Assembly: GCA_964016885.1 (NCBI GenBank)
Contig: OZ024743.1
Span: 367,846,001 to 367,910,000, forward strand
Origin: Eledone cirrhosa
Lineage: Eukaryota
DNA: 64,000 nucleotides
Direction: 5' to 3'
The notes under the pieces were generated by a model. The model was not told the origin of the DNA. It was given only the letters and a program-made list of their open reading frames with translations, and did not search any database. Of the stretch, positions 16,971-55,260 are shown piece after piece. The position numbers and the translations under genes were made by a program. Every line of letters starts with the position of its first letter. The stretch's first letter is position 1.

Positions 16971-17323
16971 TACGATATTAAATAAATGGAAATTATATTT
17001 ATAAAACCATATTTATTTCATTATATATATTTCAGGGATATCATATTAAAAATATGTTATGCCTTCTTCAGACAAAATACAATATAGACAGTCTTATAAA
17101 TAAATAGATTCGACATACCTTTCAACATCGACTTGCATTTGAATCAACTCTTCAAATGCAAGTCGATGTTGAAAGGTATGTCGAATCTATTTATTTATAA
17201 GACTGTCTATATTGTATTTTGTCTGAAGAAGGCATAACATATTTTTAATATGATATCCCTGAAATATATATAATGAAATAAATATGGTTTTATAAATATA
17301 ATTTCCATTTATTTAATATCGTA
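16971..17323. repeat. Apparently perfect 173-bp-arm palindrome (7-nt loop) carrying paired hammerhead motifs
   Basis: Arms 16971-17143 and 17151-17323, loop TCAACTC. Flanked by (TA)n, with an unpaired ~90-bp tail on the right. Confidence 0.95.
17213..17280 (+). ncRNA. Minimal hammerhead ribozyme motif (mirror copy on minus strand at about 17014-17081)
   Basis: CTGAAGA(17223) agg catAACATATTTTTAATATGatat c cct GAAA(17261) tatata. Stem I is weak. Confidence 0.65.
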
Positions 17324-17934
17324 AATATACTCCAAATACTTGTTGAGTGCTTTTATATCAGTTATAAATATTTACTCGTTATAACCCAACAATTTAAATA
17401 TAACTTTCTATGTATATATATATATATATATTATGTGTGTGTGTGTGTGTATGTATACATATATATATATGTGTGTATAAGTAAATATGTATATATATAA
17501 TCCGTCTTTTGAAATTCTTCTCTACCTACTCAAAGAACTCTTTCCTTTTTTCCCATTCTCTCAACCTCACCTCCTACTACACCTCTTCCCTCCTCTCCCA
17601 CCCCCTCTAATTCACTATTTGATATCTGCTCCTTAAAAGAGCCCCCCCCACCACCACCACCACCACTACCATCCCCAACCACTAGGAAGACTATAAGTGT
17701 CAACAACTTTCTATGTCACCCTGCATTTCATAAGAACGAAACAGTTCTACTACTGTAGATGCCATTTCTATATTAAATATATATATCATCACCATCATCA
17801 TCACTGTTTAGCATCCATTTTCCATGTTTGCATGGGTTAGATGGGTCATCCACGCCATAAGGTAAGCCTGGCTAGAGTTGGCCATGTTGTACCTTGCTCT
17901 AGTGAGGACTGTAAATTTGGCCATGTTGACACAG

Positions 17935-18950: not shown

Positions 18951-19379
18951 AATGGGACAACCGAGCTCCCAAAATATAGTTCAGCTGTGAGCAGGGTATG
19001 GCATGGTCAACTGGCCAGACCCTCCTCATAATGGTACCTCCCAGCTCCACACTGTAAACGTGGTTAGTGTTAGGAAGGGCATCCAGCAGTCATAAAAACC
19101 CAGCCAACACACAGTCCCAATATGTGCAAGGTATGGCACAGCCATCTAGCCAGACTTGTCTCATAACAGTGCCACCCAGTTCCATACTGTAAACATTGGT
19201 TGGTGCTAGGAAGGGCATCCAGCTGTAAAAATCCCTGCCAAAATACAGTTCCGTTTGAGCAAGGTACGGTGTGGCCAACTGGCTAGACTTGTCTCATAAT
19301 GTGGATGACCCATCTAACCCATGCAAGCATAGAAAAATAGACATTAAATGGTGGTGATGATGATGATATATATATATAG

Positions 19380-19640
19380 TGAGAGAACTAGGATTTAGCT
19401 TCAGACATAGCTATATACAGATATGTATAGGAATTTCGTATTTCTAAAGAAACATGGTATGTTTATAGATAAGCATTTAAAAAGCCATAGCTATGAAAAA
19501 AACACCATGGGGGGCTATCCCCTCTGGTGGTGTCCAGCAGAAGCAAGGGGGACAATCGTCAATGCATTTCGAACTTAACTGGTTCTCATCAGGACGATTC
19601 CTCCCAACTCTTGCAACGGCTGGATTTGAAAACAGTCGAG
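19380..19640 (-). mobile_element. Retrozyme-like non-coding element, related to 54571-55260
   Basis: Shares gaatttcgtatttctaaagaaac and ctctggtggtgtccagcagaagcaagg with 54770-54865 and carries an intact hammerhead motif. Confidence 0.7.
19554..19599 (-). ncRNA. Type-I hammerhead ribozyme (best-preserved in window)
   Basis: Minus strand: AATCGTC CTGATGA GAAC cagttaa GTTC GAAA TGCAT T GACGATT. 7-bp stem I, 4-bp stem II, palindromic ATGCAT stem III. Confidence 0.88.
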
Positions 19641-19879
19641 AATATCATCATCATCATCATCTTCATCATCATCATTTAACGTCTATCTTCCACGCTAACA
19701 TGGGTTAGACGGGAATTGTCCCATTTGAGGTAAGATTGGTCGGGTGATCATGTCTCGCTCGTATAGAACTATCTGGCAGGTTTTCTACGGTTGGGTGCCC
19801 TTCCTAATACCAACTACATTTACAGTGTGGGGGAGCTTTTTACCGTGTTACCTATATGACCACATTACAGCGTGTACTG

Positions 19880-24177: not shown

Positions 24178-24908
24178 TGTATAAAAGTAATATATATGAG
24201 TAATATATGTGATGAAACAGATACCAACACATCTGTATTTATATTGCAAAAGAAAATTAGCCAGAATGAAGAATATTAATTATTTTACCACAGTTCGTCC
24301 ACATCGATTTAAAATAATAAATCGACAAAAACTAGCTGCGCTGCCAAATGGCTATGATGTTTATACATATTTAAATTTCAAAATCAAACCTGTTCCGTAG
24401 ATAAGTTTAAACCTTAAAATCCAAACATGTTTCGAGATGAATAAGTGTATAAGTGTAGGAATATCTTGCCACTGCTCTCCTCAGTAAACATCCAGAGACA
24501 ATTGATAAGCTTCACTTCTAAATAATTTAAAAGACTGTGTGACGCACATGGGTTCACAGATTCAAGCTAGTCTCATAACCGTACTGCTAGAAATAACAGT
24601 CGTGAGGAGAGCAGTGGCATGATATTCCTACACTTATACACTTATTCATCTCGAAACATGTTTGGATTTTAAGGTTTAAACTTATCTACGGAACAGGTTT
24701 GATTTTGAAATTTAAATATGTATAAACATCATAGCCATTTGGCAGCGCAACTAGTTTTTGTCGATTTATTATTTTAAATCGATGTGGACGAACTGTGGTA
24801 AAATAATTAATATTCTTCATTCTGGCTAATTTTCTTTTGCAATATAAATACAGATGTGCTGGTATCTGTTTCATCATATATATTACTCATATATATTACT
24901 TTTATACA
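24178..24908. repeat. Fold-back element, ~305-bp near-identical arms with hammerhead motif
   Basis: 24178-24483 is the inverse of 24603-24908, with a ~120-bp spacer. Duplicated ORFs 24209-24400(+) and 24686-24877(-) confirm the inversion. Confidence 0.93.
24420..24490 (-). ncRNA. Hammerhead ribozyme motif with long stem-II loop
   Basis: Minus strand: CTGAGGA GAG...CTC GAAA CATGT t (palindromic ACATGT). The right-arm copy starts at TGAGGA (24603) and lacks the first core C. Confidence 0.7.
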
Positions 24909-25752: not shown

Positions 25753-25790
<38 letters not shown>

Positions 25791-25975
25791 CGTTTCTGAA
25801 TTTGTTTAGCAAGATTCTTTATCGGAAAACGTGTGTTGAAACTGATATTGTTATACTTTGGGAGGGTCATGTTGCCAATAAGAAACACATGCACCAGTTG
25901 CTTTCACTTCAATTTATTATAAATTTCCGGTTGGTTGGTTGGTTGGTTCCACAACGCGGTGGTTGTTCATATATT

Positions 25976-26017
25976 GTCAAAGTCTTTCGTCACACATTCT
26001 GTGACCTCTTCAGTGAC
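25976..26017 (-). ncRNA. Hammerhead ribozyme in 3' pLTR
   Basis: GTCA CTGAAGA g GTCACA gaatg TGTGAC GAAA gactt TGAC. Confidence 0.8.
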
Positions 26018-26213
26018 TGGGGATTCTTTTCTTTGTTTTGTGCCTCTCCTTTGTTCTGTCCTACGCCATCTTGTTTTTGTTTTTTTTGTTTGTGTTGTGT
26101 GCTTAGTTTGCGCATGTGTTACATCCGGGTGTCCGTGTGTGATTTTTATTTGTTTATTTACATGTTACTAGTTAGTTGTTTGTTCTATGTGTGTGTGTGT
26201 TTTCATTTTGTCC

Positions 26214-27040
26214 TTAATTGTAAGTTGTGATGTTGCTGTTCCATTCATGTTTCCTCTTTAATTTTGGTTGGAGTTCATTTATGTTTATTGCCTCTGTGAT
26301 TTGTCTAAACATTGCGTCTTTTCTGTGTGTAGATTTTGTTTTTATTTCTATGTTCTCTAATTTGCCCTTATGTTCTATCTTAGCATGTTGGTGGAGTACT
26401 GATGACTCTTTTCTATCTTGAATCTCTCGCCAGTGTTCATTTAATTGTTCTCCTATACTACGAGCTGTCTCACCTATGTACATTATATTCTTATCTTTAC
26501 ATTGTCCCTCAGTACATCTTATGCTATATACTATGTTTCTAGTTTTACAGTTAATATGGGGGCTTAGTTTACAGATTATGCATTTCTTATCTATACAGGG
26601 AGGTCTTTGAAAAGGGTATGTATTACTAATAAGTGTTTTTGTGGAGGCACTTGGTCTTTCCACTATCTTAATATTGAGTTTATGTTTATCAAGGGCCCTT
26701 CTAAATTTGTAAGCTAATTCACTTCTAGGGGTTGTATTGATGAACATTACACTCTGGTATTTATTGTTATCATACCATGAGTTTATTTTATTAATCTTAT
26801 TCCTAGTTCTTTCTATTCTATTCCAAAATTTGCTCCTATACAAGAGGCAGGTCCCATTTGTATCATTATTTACCATTTTTTCCCATTTGGTTCTGGCTCC
26901 TCTATATACTCTGATTTTATCTCTCTGATTGTAACCAGAGAACTGCATACGGTGGATGAAGTGTTTTATGTGTCTCTCTAGTTCTTTGGGGTTGCACATG
27001 CAGGACATGTTCCTCATCACCCTTACTAAATCCGCAATCA
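26214..27040 (-). pseudogene. Penelope RT-thumb/linker plus Cys knuckle plus GIY-YIG endonuclease (truncated ORF)
   Basis: CIDKKCIICK..NCKTRNIVYSIRC..MYIGETARSIGEQLNEH..HAKIEH..RQITEAININE. The ORF-track N-terminus (27158-27040) is read-through of the inverted pLTR. Confidence 0.9.
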
Positions 27041-27098
27041 AACAAGATGGCGTAGGACAGAACAAAGCAGAGGTACAAAGCAAAGAAAAGAATCCCCA

Positions 27099-27141
27099 GT
27101 CACCGAAGAGGTCACAGAATGTGTGACGAAAGAACTTTGAC
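27099..27141 (+). ncRNA. Hammerhead motif in inverted pLTR (core mutated to CCGAAGA)
   Basis: GTCA CCGAAGA g GTCACA gaatg TGTGAC GAAA gaactt TGAC. Confidence 0.65.
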
Positions 27142-28299
27142 AATATATGAACAACCATCCAGTTGTGGAACCAACCAGCCAGAAATTTATAATAAATTGA
27201 AGTGAAAGCAACTGGTGCGTGTGTTTCTTATTGGCAACATGACCCTCCCAAAGTATAACAATATATATATATATATATATACATACATATCATCATCATC
27301 ATCACCGTTTAACATTCATTTTTCCATGCTGACATGGGTTAGACAAGTTATCCTGTTGTGAGCAATGCCAGGTCAGGTCACCATCTCTAGCAATACAGAA
27401 CTGGATATATATATCCAGTTCACCATGTAAGGTGGTCATGTAGGTGTCATGACAAAAACTGCCCAGTCCACACTGTAATGTGCTCATTTGGGTAACACAA
27501 CAAAAAGCACCCAGTCCACACTGTAAAGTAGTCATCTTGATGTCATGACAAAAATCACCCAGTCCACACTGTGGTTGGCATTAAGGAGGGCATCCAGCCA
27601 TAGAAACCAAGCCAGAAACAGTTCTGTATGAGCAAGACACGGTTATTTGATCTCGCTTGTCTCACAATGGGACAACTCGTCTAACTCATGCTAGTGTAGG
27701 AAAATACCTGTTAAATGGTGATGATGATGATATATATATACATCATTTTATGTATGTATATTAGGCTTTTCATATTTATAGGGAAAAATTGTTGGAATCA
27801 CCTCATGTTGATTGCGCCCTGAATACATTTCACATAAAACCTACCAATTCAAAAATATAAGGAGATACAGATATATTAAAGGGTTGCACTGTTTGGTGCT
27901 TTTTGAATGCTATGCCAAAATATGTAAAAAGTTTACTTCAACACTTGTTGATTGTAGCTAGGTTGCATTCTTTGTCCTTTTCCCCCCGTGTACATGCAGG
28001 GGACATTCCTACTGTTTATAGGATCCTAAATGGAAAAGAAATGAACCATAAATTTTAAATATGTGTGTAGAAATAATTTTACATCAGTGATTGGTTTTCA
28101 TTGTTCACATTGATGAGATGAGCTTTTCGATATTTTTTTGATAATTCAGCAAGATAATGTGTTAACAATAAGATTATAATGTTCATTGCATTGTTGGTTC
28201 AGTGCTGGTTTGGTTAGCAAGAAATAAAAACACTGGTTTTTTTCAAGTTCCATCCGTTGTTATAAAGTCTAAAATTCATTGATTTTGATTTTCATCTTT

Positions 28300-43341: not shown

Positions 43342-43529
43342 GACCATGCTGTAAAATGGAGGGGTAGAGAGGGCCCTTGAGTCTAGTAAGACATCCTCTC
43401 TAGTGCTGGTGGCACAAATAAAAGCACCCAGTCCATGCTGTAAAGTGGCGCTGGTGTTAGGAAGGGCATCCAACCAGTGTATCAATGCCAAAAGCTTATC
43501 AGCACAGCAACAAAACAGCATAGAAAAAT

Positions 43530-44426
43530 ATGAAGACGTCGCATCTCAGAGTTGCAACACTTAATGTTGGCACTCTCAGAGGTAGATCTGCTGAAATAGC
43601 GGAGATGCTGGAGAGAAGGCAGGTGGATGTGTGCTGCGTGCAAGAGGTGAGATGGAGAGGTGCCTCTGCGAGACTAGTCGTAGGCAAGCGTCTTAGCTAT
43701 AAGCTATTCTGGGTAGGTAAGGATGATGGGTTAGGGGGAGTAGGCATTTTCCTGGCTGAGAAATGGATCAATAAGACAATAAAGGTAGTTCGAGTTAGTA
43801 ATCGAATAATTAAGCTTAGATTAGTTGTAGGTAGGAGACTACTGACAATCATCTCGGTCTATGCTCCCCAAGCAGGCCTAGGCAAAGATGAGAAAGACTG
43901 CTTTTATGAGCAACTCTTGCAAACAACCACAATGACCGAGGACGGAGACATCGTTATGCTAGCAGGAGACTTCAATGGTCATGTTGGACAGCTCCAGGAT
44001 GGTTACACTGGGGTACATGGTGGGCACGGTTACGGTTCAAGAAATGAAGAAGGAGTGAGACTTCTTGAATTTTGTGATGCAAGTACATTGACTATTTGCA
44101 ACACAAACTTCCAGAAACCTGCCAATCACCTAATAACCTACAAATCTGGTGAGCACATAAGCCAGATTGACTTCCTGCTAGTTAGGCAGCGGGACAGGCA
44201 GATAGTGTCTAATACCAAGGCATACCCTGGGGAAGAATGTACCCCACAGCATAGGTTAGTTGTTAGTGATATCTCAGTAAGCAAGAGATGGAATGAGACA
44301 TATAGGAAGGTGTGGAGAAGAAAGGTCTGGAAGCTAAAAGACCTTTCACTAAAATTCAAATTTAGGAAAGCCCTTCAAGATGTATATGACGAAAAAGAAG
44401 ACGATTTAGAGACGTATGACAGATAA
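43530..44426 (+). CDS. RTE apurinic-like endonuclease (N-terminal part of a single ORF)
   Basis: ATLNVGTL, CVQEVRW, ISVYAPQ, GDFNGHVG, SQIDF, QHRLVV motifs. Confidence 0.9.
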   Translation: MKTSHLRVATLNVGTLRGRSAEIAEMLERRQVDVCCVQEVRWRGASARLVVGKRLSYKLFWVGKDDGLGGVGIFLAEKWINKTIKVVRVSNRIIKLRLVVGRRLLTIISVYAPQAGLGKDEKDCFYEQLLQTTTMTEDGDIVMLAGDFNGHVGQLQDGYTGVHGGHGYGSRNEEGVRLLEFCDASTLTICNTNFQKPANHLITYKSGEHISQIDFLLVRQRDRQIVSNTKAYPGEECTPQHRLVVSDISVSKRWNETYRKVWRRKVWKLKDLSLKFKFRKALQDVYDEKEDDLETYDR

Positions 44427-46596
44427 TAACTGGAAGTTCTTACGTGACAACTTGCTGCAGGCTACTGATGAAACCTGTGGCTGGAGCAGAGCTCCAACCA
44501 GACAGAGAGTGACCTGGTGGTGGAACAGCACAGTAGATAAGGCTATTAGAGACAAAAGACTAGCATGGAAGGCTTGGAAAAAGGGTGGGAGTAGGGAAGA
44601 ATATTCAGCCACTAAGAGAGAAGCTAGACGTCAGGTGTACTTAGCACGCAGGGAGGCAGAGAGTAGGAAGTTTGCCAATGTTCTGCGACGGGAAGATCAG
44701 AGGCGTGCGGTGTTCCACATTGCAAGGCAGTGTGTCAATGCAAATCAGGATGTTGTTGGTGATAAATGTGTCCGGGATGATGCCGGTGTACTTAGTGTCA
44801 CGAATGACCAGAAAAAGGAGGCCTGGAAATGTCATTATGAGAGACTGATGAATGTGGAGAACGAATGGGAGAGAGAGAAATTACCCTTGGTAGATCCGAC
44901 AGAGGGACCAGCTATTGAGATTGACGAATATAGGGTCCAAGAGGCGATTAGGGAAATGAAAAATGGTAAGGCGGTCGGACCATCGGGAATAGTTGCTGAG
45001 ATGCTGAAGGCATCAGGGGACGTAGGCACTAAACTGGTTGCACGCATCATCAATCAGGCTATATATGGTGGTGTCATACCCAAAGACTGGTGCAGCAGTA
45101 TTCTCATAAATTGCTACAAAGGTAAAGGGGATGCTTTGGAGAGGAGCAATTATAGGGGTATAAAGCTGATAGATCAGGTTATGAAAGTGGCAGAAAGGAT
45201 TTTAGCACAACTAATTAGAGAAAGGGTCAAACTAGATGAGATGCAGTTTAGTTTTGTGCCTGGGAAGAGTACAACAGATGCCCTCTTCTTGGTGAGACAA
45301 ATGCAAGAGAGGTTCTTAGAGAAGAATAAGCCACTATACTTAGCCTTTGTTGACCTAGAGAAGGCCTTTGATAGGGTACCCCGATCTGTCATCTGGTGGT
45401 CCCTAAGGAAGCTGGGTGTTGAGGAATGGCTTGTGAGGACAGTGCAAACTTTGTACAGAGGTACTCTCAGTAGAGTCAGGGTAGGAATGGAGTTTAGTGA
45501 GGAATTCCAGATACAAGTAGGAGTACATCAGGGTTCGGTCCTCAGCCCGCTCTTGTTCATTATAGTCCTCCAAGCCATAACAGAGGAGTTTAAGACTGGC
45601 TGTCCATGGGAACTTCTCTATGCTGACGATCTGGCTCTTATGGCAGAATCAGTAGAGGAGCTAGAGAATAAATTCCGGCTGTGGAAACAGCAGTTGGAAG
45701 CAAGAGGACTGAGAGTAAATCTAGCTAAGACAAAAGTGTTGATGAGTAGAAAAGAGGACAAAACCCTGATTCCGTCAGGGAAATGGCCATGTTCGATATG
45801 CAGAAAAGGAACTGGCATAAATTCTATAAAATGCACACAATGCAGGTCCTGGGTACACAAGAGATGTAGCGGGATAGCAGGCAAACTAACAGGTAGGGAG
45901 AAATATGTATGCAGTAGATGTACAGGGAAATTAGACAGTAGAAGTCGCACTGATAGACACATTTTTCAAATGCGAGAGGGCGCTATAGAAGTGGTGGATA
46001 GCTTCCGGTACCTAGGAGATCAGATTAGCATGGGAGGAGGGTGTTCCGAGGCCATAGTATCTAGAATAAGGACGGGTTGGAAGAAGTTTAGGGAGCTGCT
46101 TCCTCTGTTGACGAAGAAGGGTTTCTCCCTGCGTACGAAAGGCCGGTTGTATGATGCCTGTCTGAGGAGCGCGATGCTGCATGGTAGTGAGACATGGGCA
46201 GCAACCGCAGAGGATATGCGACGGCTGGAGAGAAATGAGGCAAGCATGCTCCGTTGGATGTGCAGTGTAAATGTGCGTGAACGACCCAGCATAAATGTGT
46301 TGAGAGAGAAACTGTGTCTGAGAGGGATAGAATGTAGTGTACGGGAGAGGAGACTGAGGTGGTATGGACATGTGATGCGCATGGAGGATGACCGATGGGT
46401 GAAGAAGTGCCAGGAAATGCCAGTTGAGGGAAGACGTGGTAGAGGTAGACCACAAAAAACATGGGCGGAGGTGGTGAGAACAGACCTCAGATCATTGAAG
46501 CTCACGGTGGAGATGACGAGGGACCGTGACGAGTGGAGAGATGCTGTGCTGAATAAGACCCGTCCCACCCTTGCAAGCAGGGAAAAGCGGACGTAA
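44416..46596 (+). CDS. RTE reverse transcriptase with inserted C4HC3 finger (C-terminal part)
   Basis: 726-aa open frame: [48 protein letters not shown]. Confidence 0.95.
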
Positions 46597-48752: not shown

Positions 48753-48996
48753 GTTTCCACGAACCAAAGTCTCGTCTTCCTGTCTTCCTCCGGTTGCAAC
48801 GTTTTTTGAAATATCCACTTCTGCGTTTACAGATTGACTTTGTTAGTTTCAGAAGATCCCGTTAAGGGTGAAAGCAGCGATTCTTTGCTTAAACTTCTGA
48901 AACTAACAAAGTCAATCTGTAAACGCAGAAGTGGATATTTCAAAAAACGTTGCAACCGGAGGAAGACAGGAAGACGATACTTTGGTTCGTGGAAAC
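48753..48996. repeat. Palindrome, 103-bp arms, 38-nt spacer
   Basis: 48753-48855 is the inverse of 48894-48996. Followed by two diverged ~140-bp tandem units (48984-49258). Confidence 0.92.
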
Positions 48997-49842
48997 GTTC
49001 CCTGGCAAAGAACGGGGAAAAAACGAATAAAATACGTCATTATTTGGAGCGGTGAAAATCAATTACGTGCAAAGACAGAACCACGTTTATGGTATAAAAG
49101 AAGTCGTAGACTAATGTTCTCTTAGGTGGTTCATAGAGACGTTCTCTGGCAATGAACGAAAAAATCGAAGATAATACGTCATATGGAGAACAATTGCACG
49201 CAAAGACCAAACCACGTAAATGGTTTCGCTGAAGTTGTAGACTAAAATTCTAACTAGGAAACCGAATGATTCTCCGCTTCAGAGTTAAGAATAAAGTAAA
49301 TAAAATACAATACAGAGGTAGTTGAAATTAAATAAATACATACACGCATCCAAATACGTACATACACAAGCATACGCGAAAACACTCGCCATAGGTATAC
49401 AAAACCACGCACATATAAATATGTGTGTGTTTGTGTGTGTGTGCGTGTATACAAATAAATAAGTAATTAAATAAACGTATATAAATAAATAAATACGTAT
49501 ATAACAAGCGCACACACATACCTACATGTAAATACACAAATGTTCGGAGACAACCGTCAACCAAAACATGAAGTACCCATATACACACACCCAACATACG
49601 TACGAACCCGCATACTCACACAGACGCAAAACTCCCGTATACACATAACCAAAAGCATATGTACCAGAATATATAAAAATATACTCCATAACATATACAA
49701 TCAAATATACGTACGAGAAAGTATACGTACCTTCACAAAACATACAGGTAATATATACTTACCTATGCAAATAAGTAATGGTATAAACAAACATATACTT
49801 AGCTACCACATCAAGACGTAAAATATCCACGTATAGATCGTA

Positions 49843-51949
49843 CTATCCGTTAGGGTATAATGTGGGGCTGTAATACAGGAAAGTTTTGTGCAATTTACAA
49901 GCCGAAATTGCCTCAGATTTTTTGTTTAAGATGTGGTCTGTGGCGTAGAGTATTTCCAGGGCTTCAGCGGCGCAGAGGTCACATGGTCTTTTATTTCCGT
50001 TATACGATCTAGCCCTAGCTAGGATCTCCCAGTGTAACTTATATTGGGTGTGGTTGTCTTTTAGACTCCAGATATAAGCTGAAAGTGACGTCATATTCCT
50101 TCTTAGAAGGTAACGAAAAGAATGGGTATGCATATAAAGACGCTGCTTGAATCTATTGGCGGTTAACTCTATGTAGGCCCTACGGGACGTGGGTGTGTCA
50201 ACCTTACATTCAATGTTACTAGAGAGGCATTTCCCAGATAGGGGGCAATCAACCCAATTCCTACAATTACAGTTAGTACTAACTACAGGGTTGCACGTGT
50301 TCCTACGGCTAGGTAGTTTAGCTAAATTTGAAGCTGTGATGTTATGTGCAAGGCTAGGAGTCGTAGAGTAAGAAATTTTAATAGTATTTCTATTAAAAAG
50401 TTTACTATATTTATGTGTAGGGGGAAAATGCTTCGTAATAAGGGATAGAAAGATTTTAGCTAATGGTGTGGCCACCTCCATATTATATGGTGGGTTATAC
50501 CATATAATGCGACGGGATCTATTTCTTCTAGGTCTATTCTCGTACTCTGTATATGCTACCTTATCGACAAATCCACTCCGATCAAGAGCTTCATTGTAAT
50601 AAGTGGAATGGTCGTTGAAAATATGCTCGTTAGTAGATAGACGGGAAAGCCTCAACGAAACGTTTCATACCAGGTTCTTGGTTACGCTGGCAGGATGGTT
50701 GGAATGCTTACTTACGTAATTAAGCGTATCATTCGGCTTTCTATACGGGTAATACAAGCCATTCGATAAATTGAGGGTAACGTCGAGGTAATTAACGACC
50801 GAGAAGTTGGCTTCAACCTGTATAGAGAGGTTGAAGCCTTTAAAGAAGGCTGTGAGTTCTTTTCTGAACCTGTCGCAAGCACTTAGTCATGGTCAAAAGA
50901 CCATCATCACAGTACAAACCACCGCCCGCGTTGGGGAATTCGTCCTTGATAGAGAAAAGAAGGAAAAGGCCGACAAGATCAGTAACCTCCGCAGAATCGC
51001 TGGCGCCCATACTCACGTCGAATGGGGTACTATTGGATTTTTTAATCCAAATAGAGTCGTCGAAATTAATCACCGACTTACGGGCATTGAGGATGACATC
51101 AACTTCGAAATCCTTAACCACTGTGAGTGTTTTAGCGAAATTGATAGCTCTAAGGAGTAGTGGTAAAGTGATGGAGGAGTAGTAATTATTGATGTCGAAT
51201 TGGATAAAACGGCAATGTTCCTTGTTGCATATGCCGTTGAACCAATCAATCACCGCGAAAGAATTGTTCCACAGTGCAAGAGGGGCCAAACTTCTAATTT
51301 CAGGTATAATTCTATCAAGAATCCTTTTACTAAGTCTATCTAAATCGGACTTCGTAGGGTTAATAAGCCGAATAGAGGGGTTGTTCGGAAAATTGGATTT
51401 GTGATCCTTCAGGATAAAGTGGGGAAAAATAGGGTCCAGAGGTTCTATCCGGTCCAGGATGTTGAGATCAGAGGTGATTTTAAACCCAGCATCGTTGATT
51501 TCATTGATGACGCACCGATTAGTTTTACGGTAATCCTTAGTTACAGCATTATGTAGTAGTTGATGGTAAGTACTGTGCTCCACTTGATATAGGTTGCCAG
51601 TTTTGTCGGAATGGACGTGCACGGCATTATAATCCTTAATAGAACGAATTCTATTCTTCAGGTCCTGCTGGAAGGAATTGCTCCTATTCCGAAATTTGAT
51701 ACTCCGTATGAGTTCCAAGACATCATTTTCAATGGGTAGCAATGTTGGGTTACACGGAGGGTTATTATAGGTTTTAAACCCAAATTTATCCTGTTTGTTG
51801 TCAGCTTTTCGCGGATTATCGAAATAAAAGGCACGCCAACGCAACCTTTTAATGAACGAATCTGTTTTCTGTATCAGGAGTTTTAGGTATGTTTTCCTCC
51901 TTGGTACGGGTATGTTCTTTGAAGAAATATTCAGATGTTGTTTCTGCAT
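49843..51949 (-). pseudogene. Naiad-like Penelope element ORF (RT plus GIY-YIG), full length but disrupted
   Basis: N-terminus SSKNIPVP..IKRLRWRAFYF; RT FDINNYYSSI, MGASDSAEVTDLVG, GLYCDDGL; YLDVTLNL..HSNHP; CNCR..CPLSGKC, YIELT..FKQR, CDLC..LNKKSE. Frameshift near 50885 and in-frame TGA at 50665-50667. Confidence 0.88.
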
Positions 51950-51978
51950 GATGAATATAAGTCAATAGAGGAAGCCAA

Positions 51979-54278: not shown

Positions 54279-54570
54279 CTATAAGTTTGTGGATGTGTGT
54301 AAAAAAATATCACGTATTCACAATCCAAATTGAAAATAATGACGTACGTAACTGTCAAAAATTAGTTTCACTTTTGAGACCGGCCGTTTTGACGTATGCC
54401 TATATATATATATGTGTGTGTGTGTATATATATGTATATGTATATATATGTGTATGTGTGCATGTGTGTGTGTGTGAATGCCTGTATATGTTTATGTTTG
54501 TATGTATATATATGCGTAGATGTATATACATGTATATATATGCGTAGATTTGTATACATTTCTGTCTTTA

Positions 54571-55260
54571 CTGGCCTTCCTCTGGACGGTCTCTCCCACA
54601 GCTTGCGAGTTCTGGACTTGAAGACAGGTGAGAATATATACTTTTCTCGTCTGTGTAAATGAGGTGATTAATCTCATTTGCATATGAAGCTGCATAAGTT
54701 GGCTCAACTTATAATAGAATAGAAATAGTATTTCGCTTCAAGCATATCTTTATACAAATATGTATAGAAATTTCGTATTTCTAAAGAAACACGGTTTTAG
54801 GAAGCCGTAGCTATGGAAACACCGGGGCTAACGCCCTCTGGTGGTGTCCAGCAGAAGCAAGGAGGACACCTGTCTATGCATTTCAGGCTTGACTGGCCTT
54901 CCTCAAGACGGTCTTGTATAAAGCTATGCTTGAAACGAAATCTTATTTCTATTCTATTATAAGTTGAGCCAACTTATACAGCTTCATATGCAAATGAGAT
55001 TAATCACCTCATCTACACAGACGAGAAAACTACATATTCTCGACTGTTTTCAGGTCCAGCAGTCGCAAGCAGTGGGAGAAACCAGTCAAGCCTGAATTGC
55101 ATAGACAGGTGTCCCCCTTGCTTCTACTGGACACCACCAGAGGGCGCTAGCCCCGGTGTTTGCATAGCTACGGCTTCCTAAAACCGTGTTTCTTTATAAA
55201 TACGAAATTTCTATACATATTTCTATAAAGCTATGCTTGAAGCGAAATCTTATTTCTATA
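54571..55260. mobile_element. Retrozyme-like ~322-nt monomer present as two inverted, circularly permuted copies
   Basis: ctggccttcctc..gacggtc repeats at 54571 and 54893. tataaagctatgcttgaa.cgaaatcttatttctat repeats at 54917 and 55224. Hammerhead motif on minus at 54868-54912. Confidence 0.78.

Follow-up and report, generated by a model that had tools for sequence, protein, structure and literature searches.

The window analysed here, 64,000 nucleotides of the Eledone cirrhosa genome, carries on its minus strand a short motif that reads as a type I hammerhead, and the question this locus raises is whether the motif belongs to a working self-cleaving element, and by what route such an element would have spread. 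An earlier note had described it as a retrozyme copy with an intact hammerhead, sister to a second copy in the same window, and had taken matched stem changes between the two as a sign of selection on RNA structure. The letters of the motif at 19599-19554 hold position by position (Table 1), and the cut expected near 19561 falls at the same site, between 19561 and 19560. The features of the hammerhead class are found here, namely CUGANGA and GAAA, an NUH site, and three helices with helix I open. Under a strict descriptor that demands six Watson-Crick pairs in stem I and four in stem II, this is the sole match in the window, with 0 matches in 100 locally shuffled windows, which bears out the view that the motif is not a chance occurrence. 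In a 66-nt fold around the motif, both stem I and stem II are formed (z -2.16; 8 of 200 shuffles equally good), and the whole copy at 19381..19645 folds with z -2.89 (1 of 200 shuffles equally good). Rfam returned no hammerhead for this region at gathering score, and with the threshold relaxed to E up to 10 its 19 matches included none; because motif and pairing are read directly, this lowers the database label only.

Table 1. Coordinates of the features discussed, in positions of the window; u denotes unit position.
Feature	Position	Strand	Remark
Type I hammerhead	19554..19599	-	Stem I (6 pairs + U1.7), core, stem II, GAAA, minimal stem III
Stem I strand AATCGTC	19599-19593	-	Sequence read
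Core CUGAUGA (CTGATGA in DNA)	19586..19592	-	Sequence read
Stem II GAAC/GUUC, 7-nt loop cagttaa	19571..19585	-	Sequence read
GAAA	19570-19567	-	Sequence read
TGCA, then T16.1 and T17	T16.1 at 19562, T17 at 19561	-	Sequence read
Stem I closing strand GACGATT	19560-19554	-	Sequence read
Palindrome AUGCAU	19562..19567	-	Predicted dimer helix III
Predicted cut between AUU and G	19560..19561	-	AUC before G is the subfamily majority
Extended helix I (UCCAGC ... GCUGGA)	19533..19624	-	Closes ribozyme domain
5'-truncated single-arm retrozyme copy, subfamily A	19381..19645	-	About 0.75 unit
(GAT)n microsatellite	19644..19675		5' junction of copy
(TA)n run	19366..19378		Directly beyond the copy's 3' end, likely insertion target
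PLE-A, 3' part of PLE-type element	25790-27227	-	RT end, CxxC linker, GIY-YIG-like domain
PLE-B, second PLE-type element	48800-51961	-	Near full-length
Sister insertion (subfamily B), left arm	54553..54913	-	1.1 units (u290 to u328), two damaged ribozymes
Sister insertion, second arm	54914..55259	+	

With unit positions (u) numbered from the first base past the cut site, the copy begins at u245, crosses the cut site and ends at u161 of a unit of about 330 nt, and contains one ribozyme at a GC content of 0.40. As judged from its sequence, it is a genomic copy of a non-coding, hammerhead-bearing non-LTR retrozyme. The palindrome AUGCAU is predicted to give at most 1-2 pairs of helix III in the monomer and, where two copies meet, a duplex of 6 pairs (-4.7 kcal/mol). 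The U at position 17 is a minority letter in subfamily A, where the 56 rows have C in 40, T in 12, A in 3 and a gap in 1, and the following base is G in 43 and A in 10. Since T17 (12/56) and A at the next base (10/56) are nearly equally frequent, and CpG transitions (13.5-15.2%) run about threefold above those at non-CpG sites (4.4-4.6%), the AUU site of this copy is likely an AUC altered through CpG deamination. A hammerhead with U17 cleaves less well than one with C17. Having less than one unit and one ribozyme, the copy cannot release a unit, and it falls short of the rule of Li et al. (2026), under which an active copy has two consecutive ribozyme units; monomer copies are treated as non-transposing offspring in that preprint (10.64898/2026.07.22.740005). 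Ribozymes with such a short helix III are described as needing a second copy nearby (PMC4209133), and the nearest relative within the window lies 35 kb away. Taken with the likely decayed AUU and the weak monomer helix III, this suggests that the copy is probably an inert, truncated derivative. Intactness therefore holds for the motif and not for the copy, with its sub-unit length, likely decayed triplet and lack of a ribozyme partner nearby.

The sister copy was also correctly read in part, its stem II AGGC-cagtcaa-GCCT with a 7-nt loop and ATGCAT palindrome being present at 54906-54875 (-). It belongs to a two-armed insertion at 54553-55259, in which all three ribozymes are damaged. The ribozyme at 54906-54875 (-) has the core TTGAGGA (54906-54900; C3 to U) and a stem I reduced to 3 contiguous pairs, and its fold equals those of shuffles (z 0.04). 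The second ribozyme of the left arm has the core CAGAGGA near 54585. Identical stem I damage occurs in both arms of the insertion, which indicates that a damaged RNA was copied.

Both loci belong to a large family. Across the 3.0-Gb genome the ribozyme pattern has 1,563 exact matches, the same pattern with free stem II has 1,773, and a 20-mer from outside the core has 1,671, against 0 in the control of each search. DNA searches yielded 3,122 and 3,458 first-look candidates, of which 40 were scored in each. Divergence is about 5% per base among family copies, which together with the exact-match counts suggests, by our own estimate, a family of roughly 4,000-5,000 copies. Ribozymes of head-to-tail units are spaced 316-336 nt apart, and tandem cut-site pairs have 81 exact matches genome-wide, so that the proposed retrozyme identity stands. 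The unit is non-coding, with GC of 0.40-0.44, below the ceiling of about 45-50% for non-LTR retrozymes, and a longest stop-free stretch of 68 aa in the doubled unit. Four natural units folded as circles are branched and self-paired (z -2.7 to -8.5 against 40 shuffles each); the ribozyme forms in the circular fold of two of the four, and the opposite strand of the unit folds at least equally well. Among 27 copies chosen by sequence outside the core, the core is intact in 19, while core, all pairs and palindrome are intact together in 4. The family is thus old and decaying. At G000:C1:143,348,607-143,796,120, seven identical ribozyme matches lie about 58-106 kb apart; this region is a large segmental duplication or an assembly repeat.

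The family resembles the metazoan non-LTR retrozymes (Cervera and de la Pena, 2020; PMC7229834), sharing with those described there a canonical type I hammerhead with short palindromic helix III, a non-coding, low-GC unit of 150-450 nt in head-to-tail copies, and a highly self-paired predicted circle in which the ribozyme is free to form. It differs in that the copies seen here at the DNA level are mostly dispersed 5'-truncated arms of less than two units rather than long arrays. The main text of that study mentions no octopus, cephalopods or inverted arrangements. Searches of the literature, which covered main texts, found no paper on this retrozyme family. The ribozyme itself has the bases of a contact described for the Schistosoma-type extended hammerhead, in which U1.7 meets an A of loop II (PMC11875169): the seventh base after the cut is U in 101 of 106 aligned ribozymes, and the final A of loop II is present in 105 of 106 (3 of 109 stretches were dropped from this alignment for indels or a deleted core). 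The contact is predicted here. U1.7 can also wobble-pair with G2.7 (94/106), and in the 19381..19645 copy it faces an A, so that a full pair is possible. The closing pair of stem II, 10.1-11.1, is a highly conserved G-C according to PMC4209133; here it is A-U in most copies (730 exact copies) and U.U in 220. The 220 U.U copies come with both loop variants.

The matched stem changes between the two window copies extend through the family. A tree built with the ribozyme masked places 35 of 85 rows, the 19381..19645 copy included, in a clade A (support 97) apart from the B groups. Across 105 distinct ribozymes, 92.0% of cells are paired, and nearly all two-sided changes fall in four pairs: pair 5 of stem I (UA 46, CG 42) and pairs 1-3 of stem II (AU 51 and GC 32; GC 66 and AU 23; AU 52 and GC 51). 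When the majority letters of subfamily A (58 rows) and subfamily B (51 rows) are compared, with 32 of 141 rows unassigned and left out, 33 of 328 columns differ and 10 of these lie within the ribozyme. Eight of the ten make up four compensated pairs, three in stem II and one in stem I, and no pair is broken. Positions 7 and 17 account for the remaining two; hammerheads leave both free to vary, and the 11 invariant core positions are unchanged. Elsewhere in the unit, by the fold of one copy, none of 12 changed paired positions is compensated. Stem II occurs across the family as AGGC/GCCU, AGAC/GUCU, GGAC/GUCC, GGAC/GUUC, GAAC/GUUC and UGGC/GCCU, and the intermediate stems AGAC/GTCT, GGAC/GTCC and GGAC/GTTC each occur as groups. 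Compensatory change is thus upheld for four pairs, beyond those first noted, but not its statistical significance: the larger alignment offers 1-3 phylogenetically independent contrasts per pair, and no pair is significant once corrected for the tree (4 of 85 rows left out).

Constraint on the ribozyme is also visible in its core. Among copies whose selection ignored the core, 10 of 297 core cells are changed against 24.8 expected (P 0.001), and two BLAST-picked sets give 8 against 19.7 and 10 against 18.8, a deficit perhaps inflated by alignment noise and by homopolymer slippage outside the core. Such a deficit is expected if variation is partly inherited from source RNAs that were obliged to keep a working core. 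Changes common to both arms of one insertion (L216 left out) affect 20 of 898 stem cells (2.2%) versus 44 of 10,075 cells elsewhere (0.44%); inherited core changes number 0 of 497 against 2.2 expected, a shortfall that is not significant (P 0.11). Selection acted on ancestral source RNAs and is not shown for the 19381..19645 copy. Two copies alone, on which the earlier claim had been built, would not have carried it, and the stems have been loosely held. The fold was kept over the long term, yet sources with imperfect stems were copied too, as the 220 U.U copies and the frequent inherited stem changes indicate. A strand bias of A-to-G changes, the mark of RNA editing, is not seen in either subfamily (A, 53/3,647 versus 47/3,662; B, 32/3,167 versus 40/3,310). 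An excess of T-to-C changes (P 0.008) disappeared after removal of polymorphic columns.

How the copies were inserted can be read from their ends, for which 99 distinct insertions were drawn from 115 loci. On the ribozyme strand, 102 of 131 fragments have their 3' end at u121-180, while 5' ends are dispersed and do not accumulate at the cut site (3/131 at u1-20). In 40 of the 99 insertions there are two opposed arms with their 3' ends outward. One end lies at u110-140 and the other at u150-180 in 19 of these 40, both are short in 1 and both long in 2, and in the other 18 the ends are not both within these two zones. The short and long 3' ends, near u125 and u160, are separated by about 35-45 nt of the unit. 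TA repeats come after 80 of 138 3' ends, against a background of 305 in 2,300, and an arm exceeds one unit in 42 of the 99 insertions. With the reference locus L043 excluded, arms of one insertion share 44 of 625 rare variants (7.0%) and different insertions 857 of 69,370 (1.2%), which indicates that both arms derive from one source sequence.

A fixed 3' end, variable 5' truncation, an inverted truncated copy, a tail and (TA)n targets are the marks of PLE-type insertion. Reports on PLEs describe the same 5' truncation, partial tandems, inverted truncated copy and tail at one end (PMC4209133, PMC8557442, PMC11167929), the inverted copy being accompanied by a tail of 30-40 bp (PMC8557442) and internal initiation following nicks in AT-rich DNA on both strands (PMC11167929). 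The pLTR hammerheads of PLEs likewise share microsatellite targets, a type I ribozyme and a palindromic 15.2-16.2 (PMC4209133). In contrast to PLEs, the retrozyme has no ORF and its ribozyme is canonical rather than minimal. By analogy with these elements, the retrozyme insertions were likely made by a PLE reverse transcriptase-endonuclease. PLEs have been named as candidate helpers of retrozymes (PMC7229834), and a link between the two has been argued in a 2026 preprint (10.64898/2026.07.22.740005; Li et al.). The evidence presented there is co-occurrence in vertebrates and similarity to pLTRs, whereas here it consists of insertion ends; no pLTR similarity was found with the two PLE-type families of the window, and the preprint's main text mentions no mollusc.

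Both PLE-type families are abundant, with 38,131 candidates genome-wide for PLE-A and 32,801 for PLE-B. PLE-A has motifs that we take to be those of an RT end, a CxxC linker and a GIY-YIG-like domain. Pfam gave no label for either PLE-type frame, the relatives of PLE-B bearing accession numbers only; the PLE label thus stems from motifs, anatomy and a minimal ribozyme. This ribozyme, near 26020 in PLE-A, has a bulged G, a 5-pair stem II and a weak helix III. PLE-A insertions have opposed arms, and their 3' ends are fixed at two sites separated by about 50-65 nt. In PLE-B, many copies retain a 713-aa open frame at 93-95% identity, and the 3' region has an internal repeat of about 140 nt and a terminal hairpin; a descriptor search of 12 full loci detected no hammerhead belonging to PLE-B itself. 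The retrozyme unit has no sequence in common with PLE-A or PLE-B loci. Tail length (PLE-A, about 50-65 nt; PLE-B, about 20-40 nt) was considered as a means of choosing a partner and singled out neither. Other elements also populate the window. At 16990-17330 two arms form a near-perfect inverted repeat, and both bear a hammerhead-like motif rich in AT (CTGAAGA ... GAAA tatata TA); this is probably another two-armed PLE-type insertion. Opposed arms at 24200-24900, with a hammerhead-like motif at 24484 (-) whose stem II is long and whose helix III is the palindrome ACATGT, are read from their sequence as a further family. A LINE-type element at 43524-46596 (+) has an endonuclease-like frame and an RT frame with an inserted PHD finger (RVT_1, PHD), and several fragments of it lie elsewhere in the window.

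The number of units per arm bears on the form of the template. At 30 tandem-pair loci the longest arm has a median of 1.6 units and exceeds two units in 3. One locus stands out, an array of about 10.5 units with 10 ribozymes in one orientation (L228/L229; G000:C2, about 83,920,630-83,923,935), which terminates at u125. Compared with one another, 8 of its units differ at 26-51 positions, as old copies do, and all 10 ribozymes carry a U at stem I position 2.1, which occurs in 0 of 46 subfamily B rows. The array would most simply be explained by one pass around an RNA circle, and, being one locus, it may alternatively reflect local expansion early on or a linear source of many units. It had been a candidate master source of the family, which the absence of its shared variant from the 46 subfamily B rows ruled out.

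These observations are, in our judgment, quite likely to reflect a PLE-spread non-LTR retrozyme that was cut out as unit RNA, circularised and copied, with 19381..19645 as a truncated copy. A source locus of two or more units would be transcribed, and its hammerheads would release RNA of unit length, likely as dimers paired through AUGCAU as predicted; hammerhead cleavage in dimer mode has been shown in print for other families. A host ligase would presumably close the unit RNA into a circle. A PLE protein is the putative enzyme that would nick AT-rich microsatellite DNA, for which the TA targets are seen. Copying would then start at one of the two internal sites where the ends are fixed, near u125 and u160, and would pass through the cut junction, covering 0.1 to about 10 rounds, often from both sides of the break, the anatomy of the arms and their opposed arrangement being as expected of such a course. 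As source RNAs needed a working core, the stems of different subfamilies would diverge by compensated pairs, and copies once inserted would decay.

Cleavage may have no part in this, if a PLE-mobilised element were copied from uncleaved linear read-through RNA with the hammerhead as a passenger, no circle, and tandem arms produced by longer sources or template jumps. A PLE protein has been reported to insert in vitro without need of ribozyme cleavage: mutating the ribozyme did not lower insertion, and reads terminating at the cut site were absent (PMC11167929). Of the Xenopus retrozyme dimers, 8 of 9 failed to cleave (10.64898/2026.07.22.740005). The lack of a pile-up of 5' ends at the cut site, the copying of U.U and stem-damaged sources, and the fact that arms are shorter than two units in 27 of 30 loci even when chosen for two ribozymes are consistent with this. 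We nevertheless consider it unlikely, given the core deficit and the four compensated pairs in the ribozyme against none among the changed paired positions elsewhere. The sole long array found is, moreover, not a general source, so that arms would shrink with each round unless some step regenerated them.

It is improbable that the copies are instead terminal repeats (pLTRs), solo or truncated, of some autonomous PLE that the searches missed, rather than a separate small element. Units abut head to tail with nothing between them, an RT plus GIY-YIG frame included, the longest stop-free stretch is the 68 aa given above, and pieces of PLE-type ORF occur within about 1.5 kb in 23 of 115 loci, at varying place and strand. 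Although the insertion anatomy resembles that of the window's PLE-type family, with two fixed ends and opposed arms, and Xenopus retrozymes resemble pLTRs (10.64898/2026.07.22.740005), no sequence is common with 40 + 12 loci of the two PLE-type families, bar one co-inserted copy, and the canonical ribozyme of 6 + 4 pairs is unlike the minimal motif of PLE-A. A different doubt concerns the stems alone: the motif would be real, and the matched changes a neutral linkage between two diverged subfamilies with pairing kept by luck. Each change amounts to about one event, none is significant after tree correction, and the shuffle control on pair changes ignores relatedness. Against this, the chance that 8 changed positions among 10 form four whole pairs is P 0.0017 before complementarity is required, the intermediate stems exist as groups, and change reached the free positions 7 and 17 and spared all 11 invariant ones; luck of this kind appears very remote.

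With a PLE-spread, circularised retrozyme as the preferred reading, a more detailed account can be offered tentatively, as a possibility slightly less likely than not. A Penelope RT may have run up to about 10 times round a ribozyme-made circle, with the core filtered in each round while the stems drifted through compensated steps in a nearly complete series; the U.U variant at hundreds of sites would then imply cleavage assisted by dimers or protein.

The 19381..19645 copy is a fossil of little weight on its own, and what its family adds is a retrozyme with Penelope insertion marks. Help from PLEs and copying of a circle have both been proposed in the literature, in main texts that give no demonstration from insertion ends. 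Its stem variants, which form a natural series, and its two fixed start sites lend themselves to direct testing. If the detailed account is true, the spread of U.U sources would mean that such assisted cleavage tolerates the loss of a pair that has been described as highly conserved.
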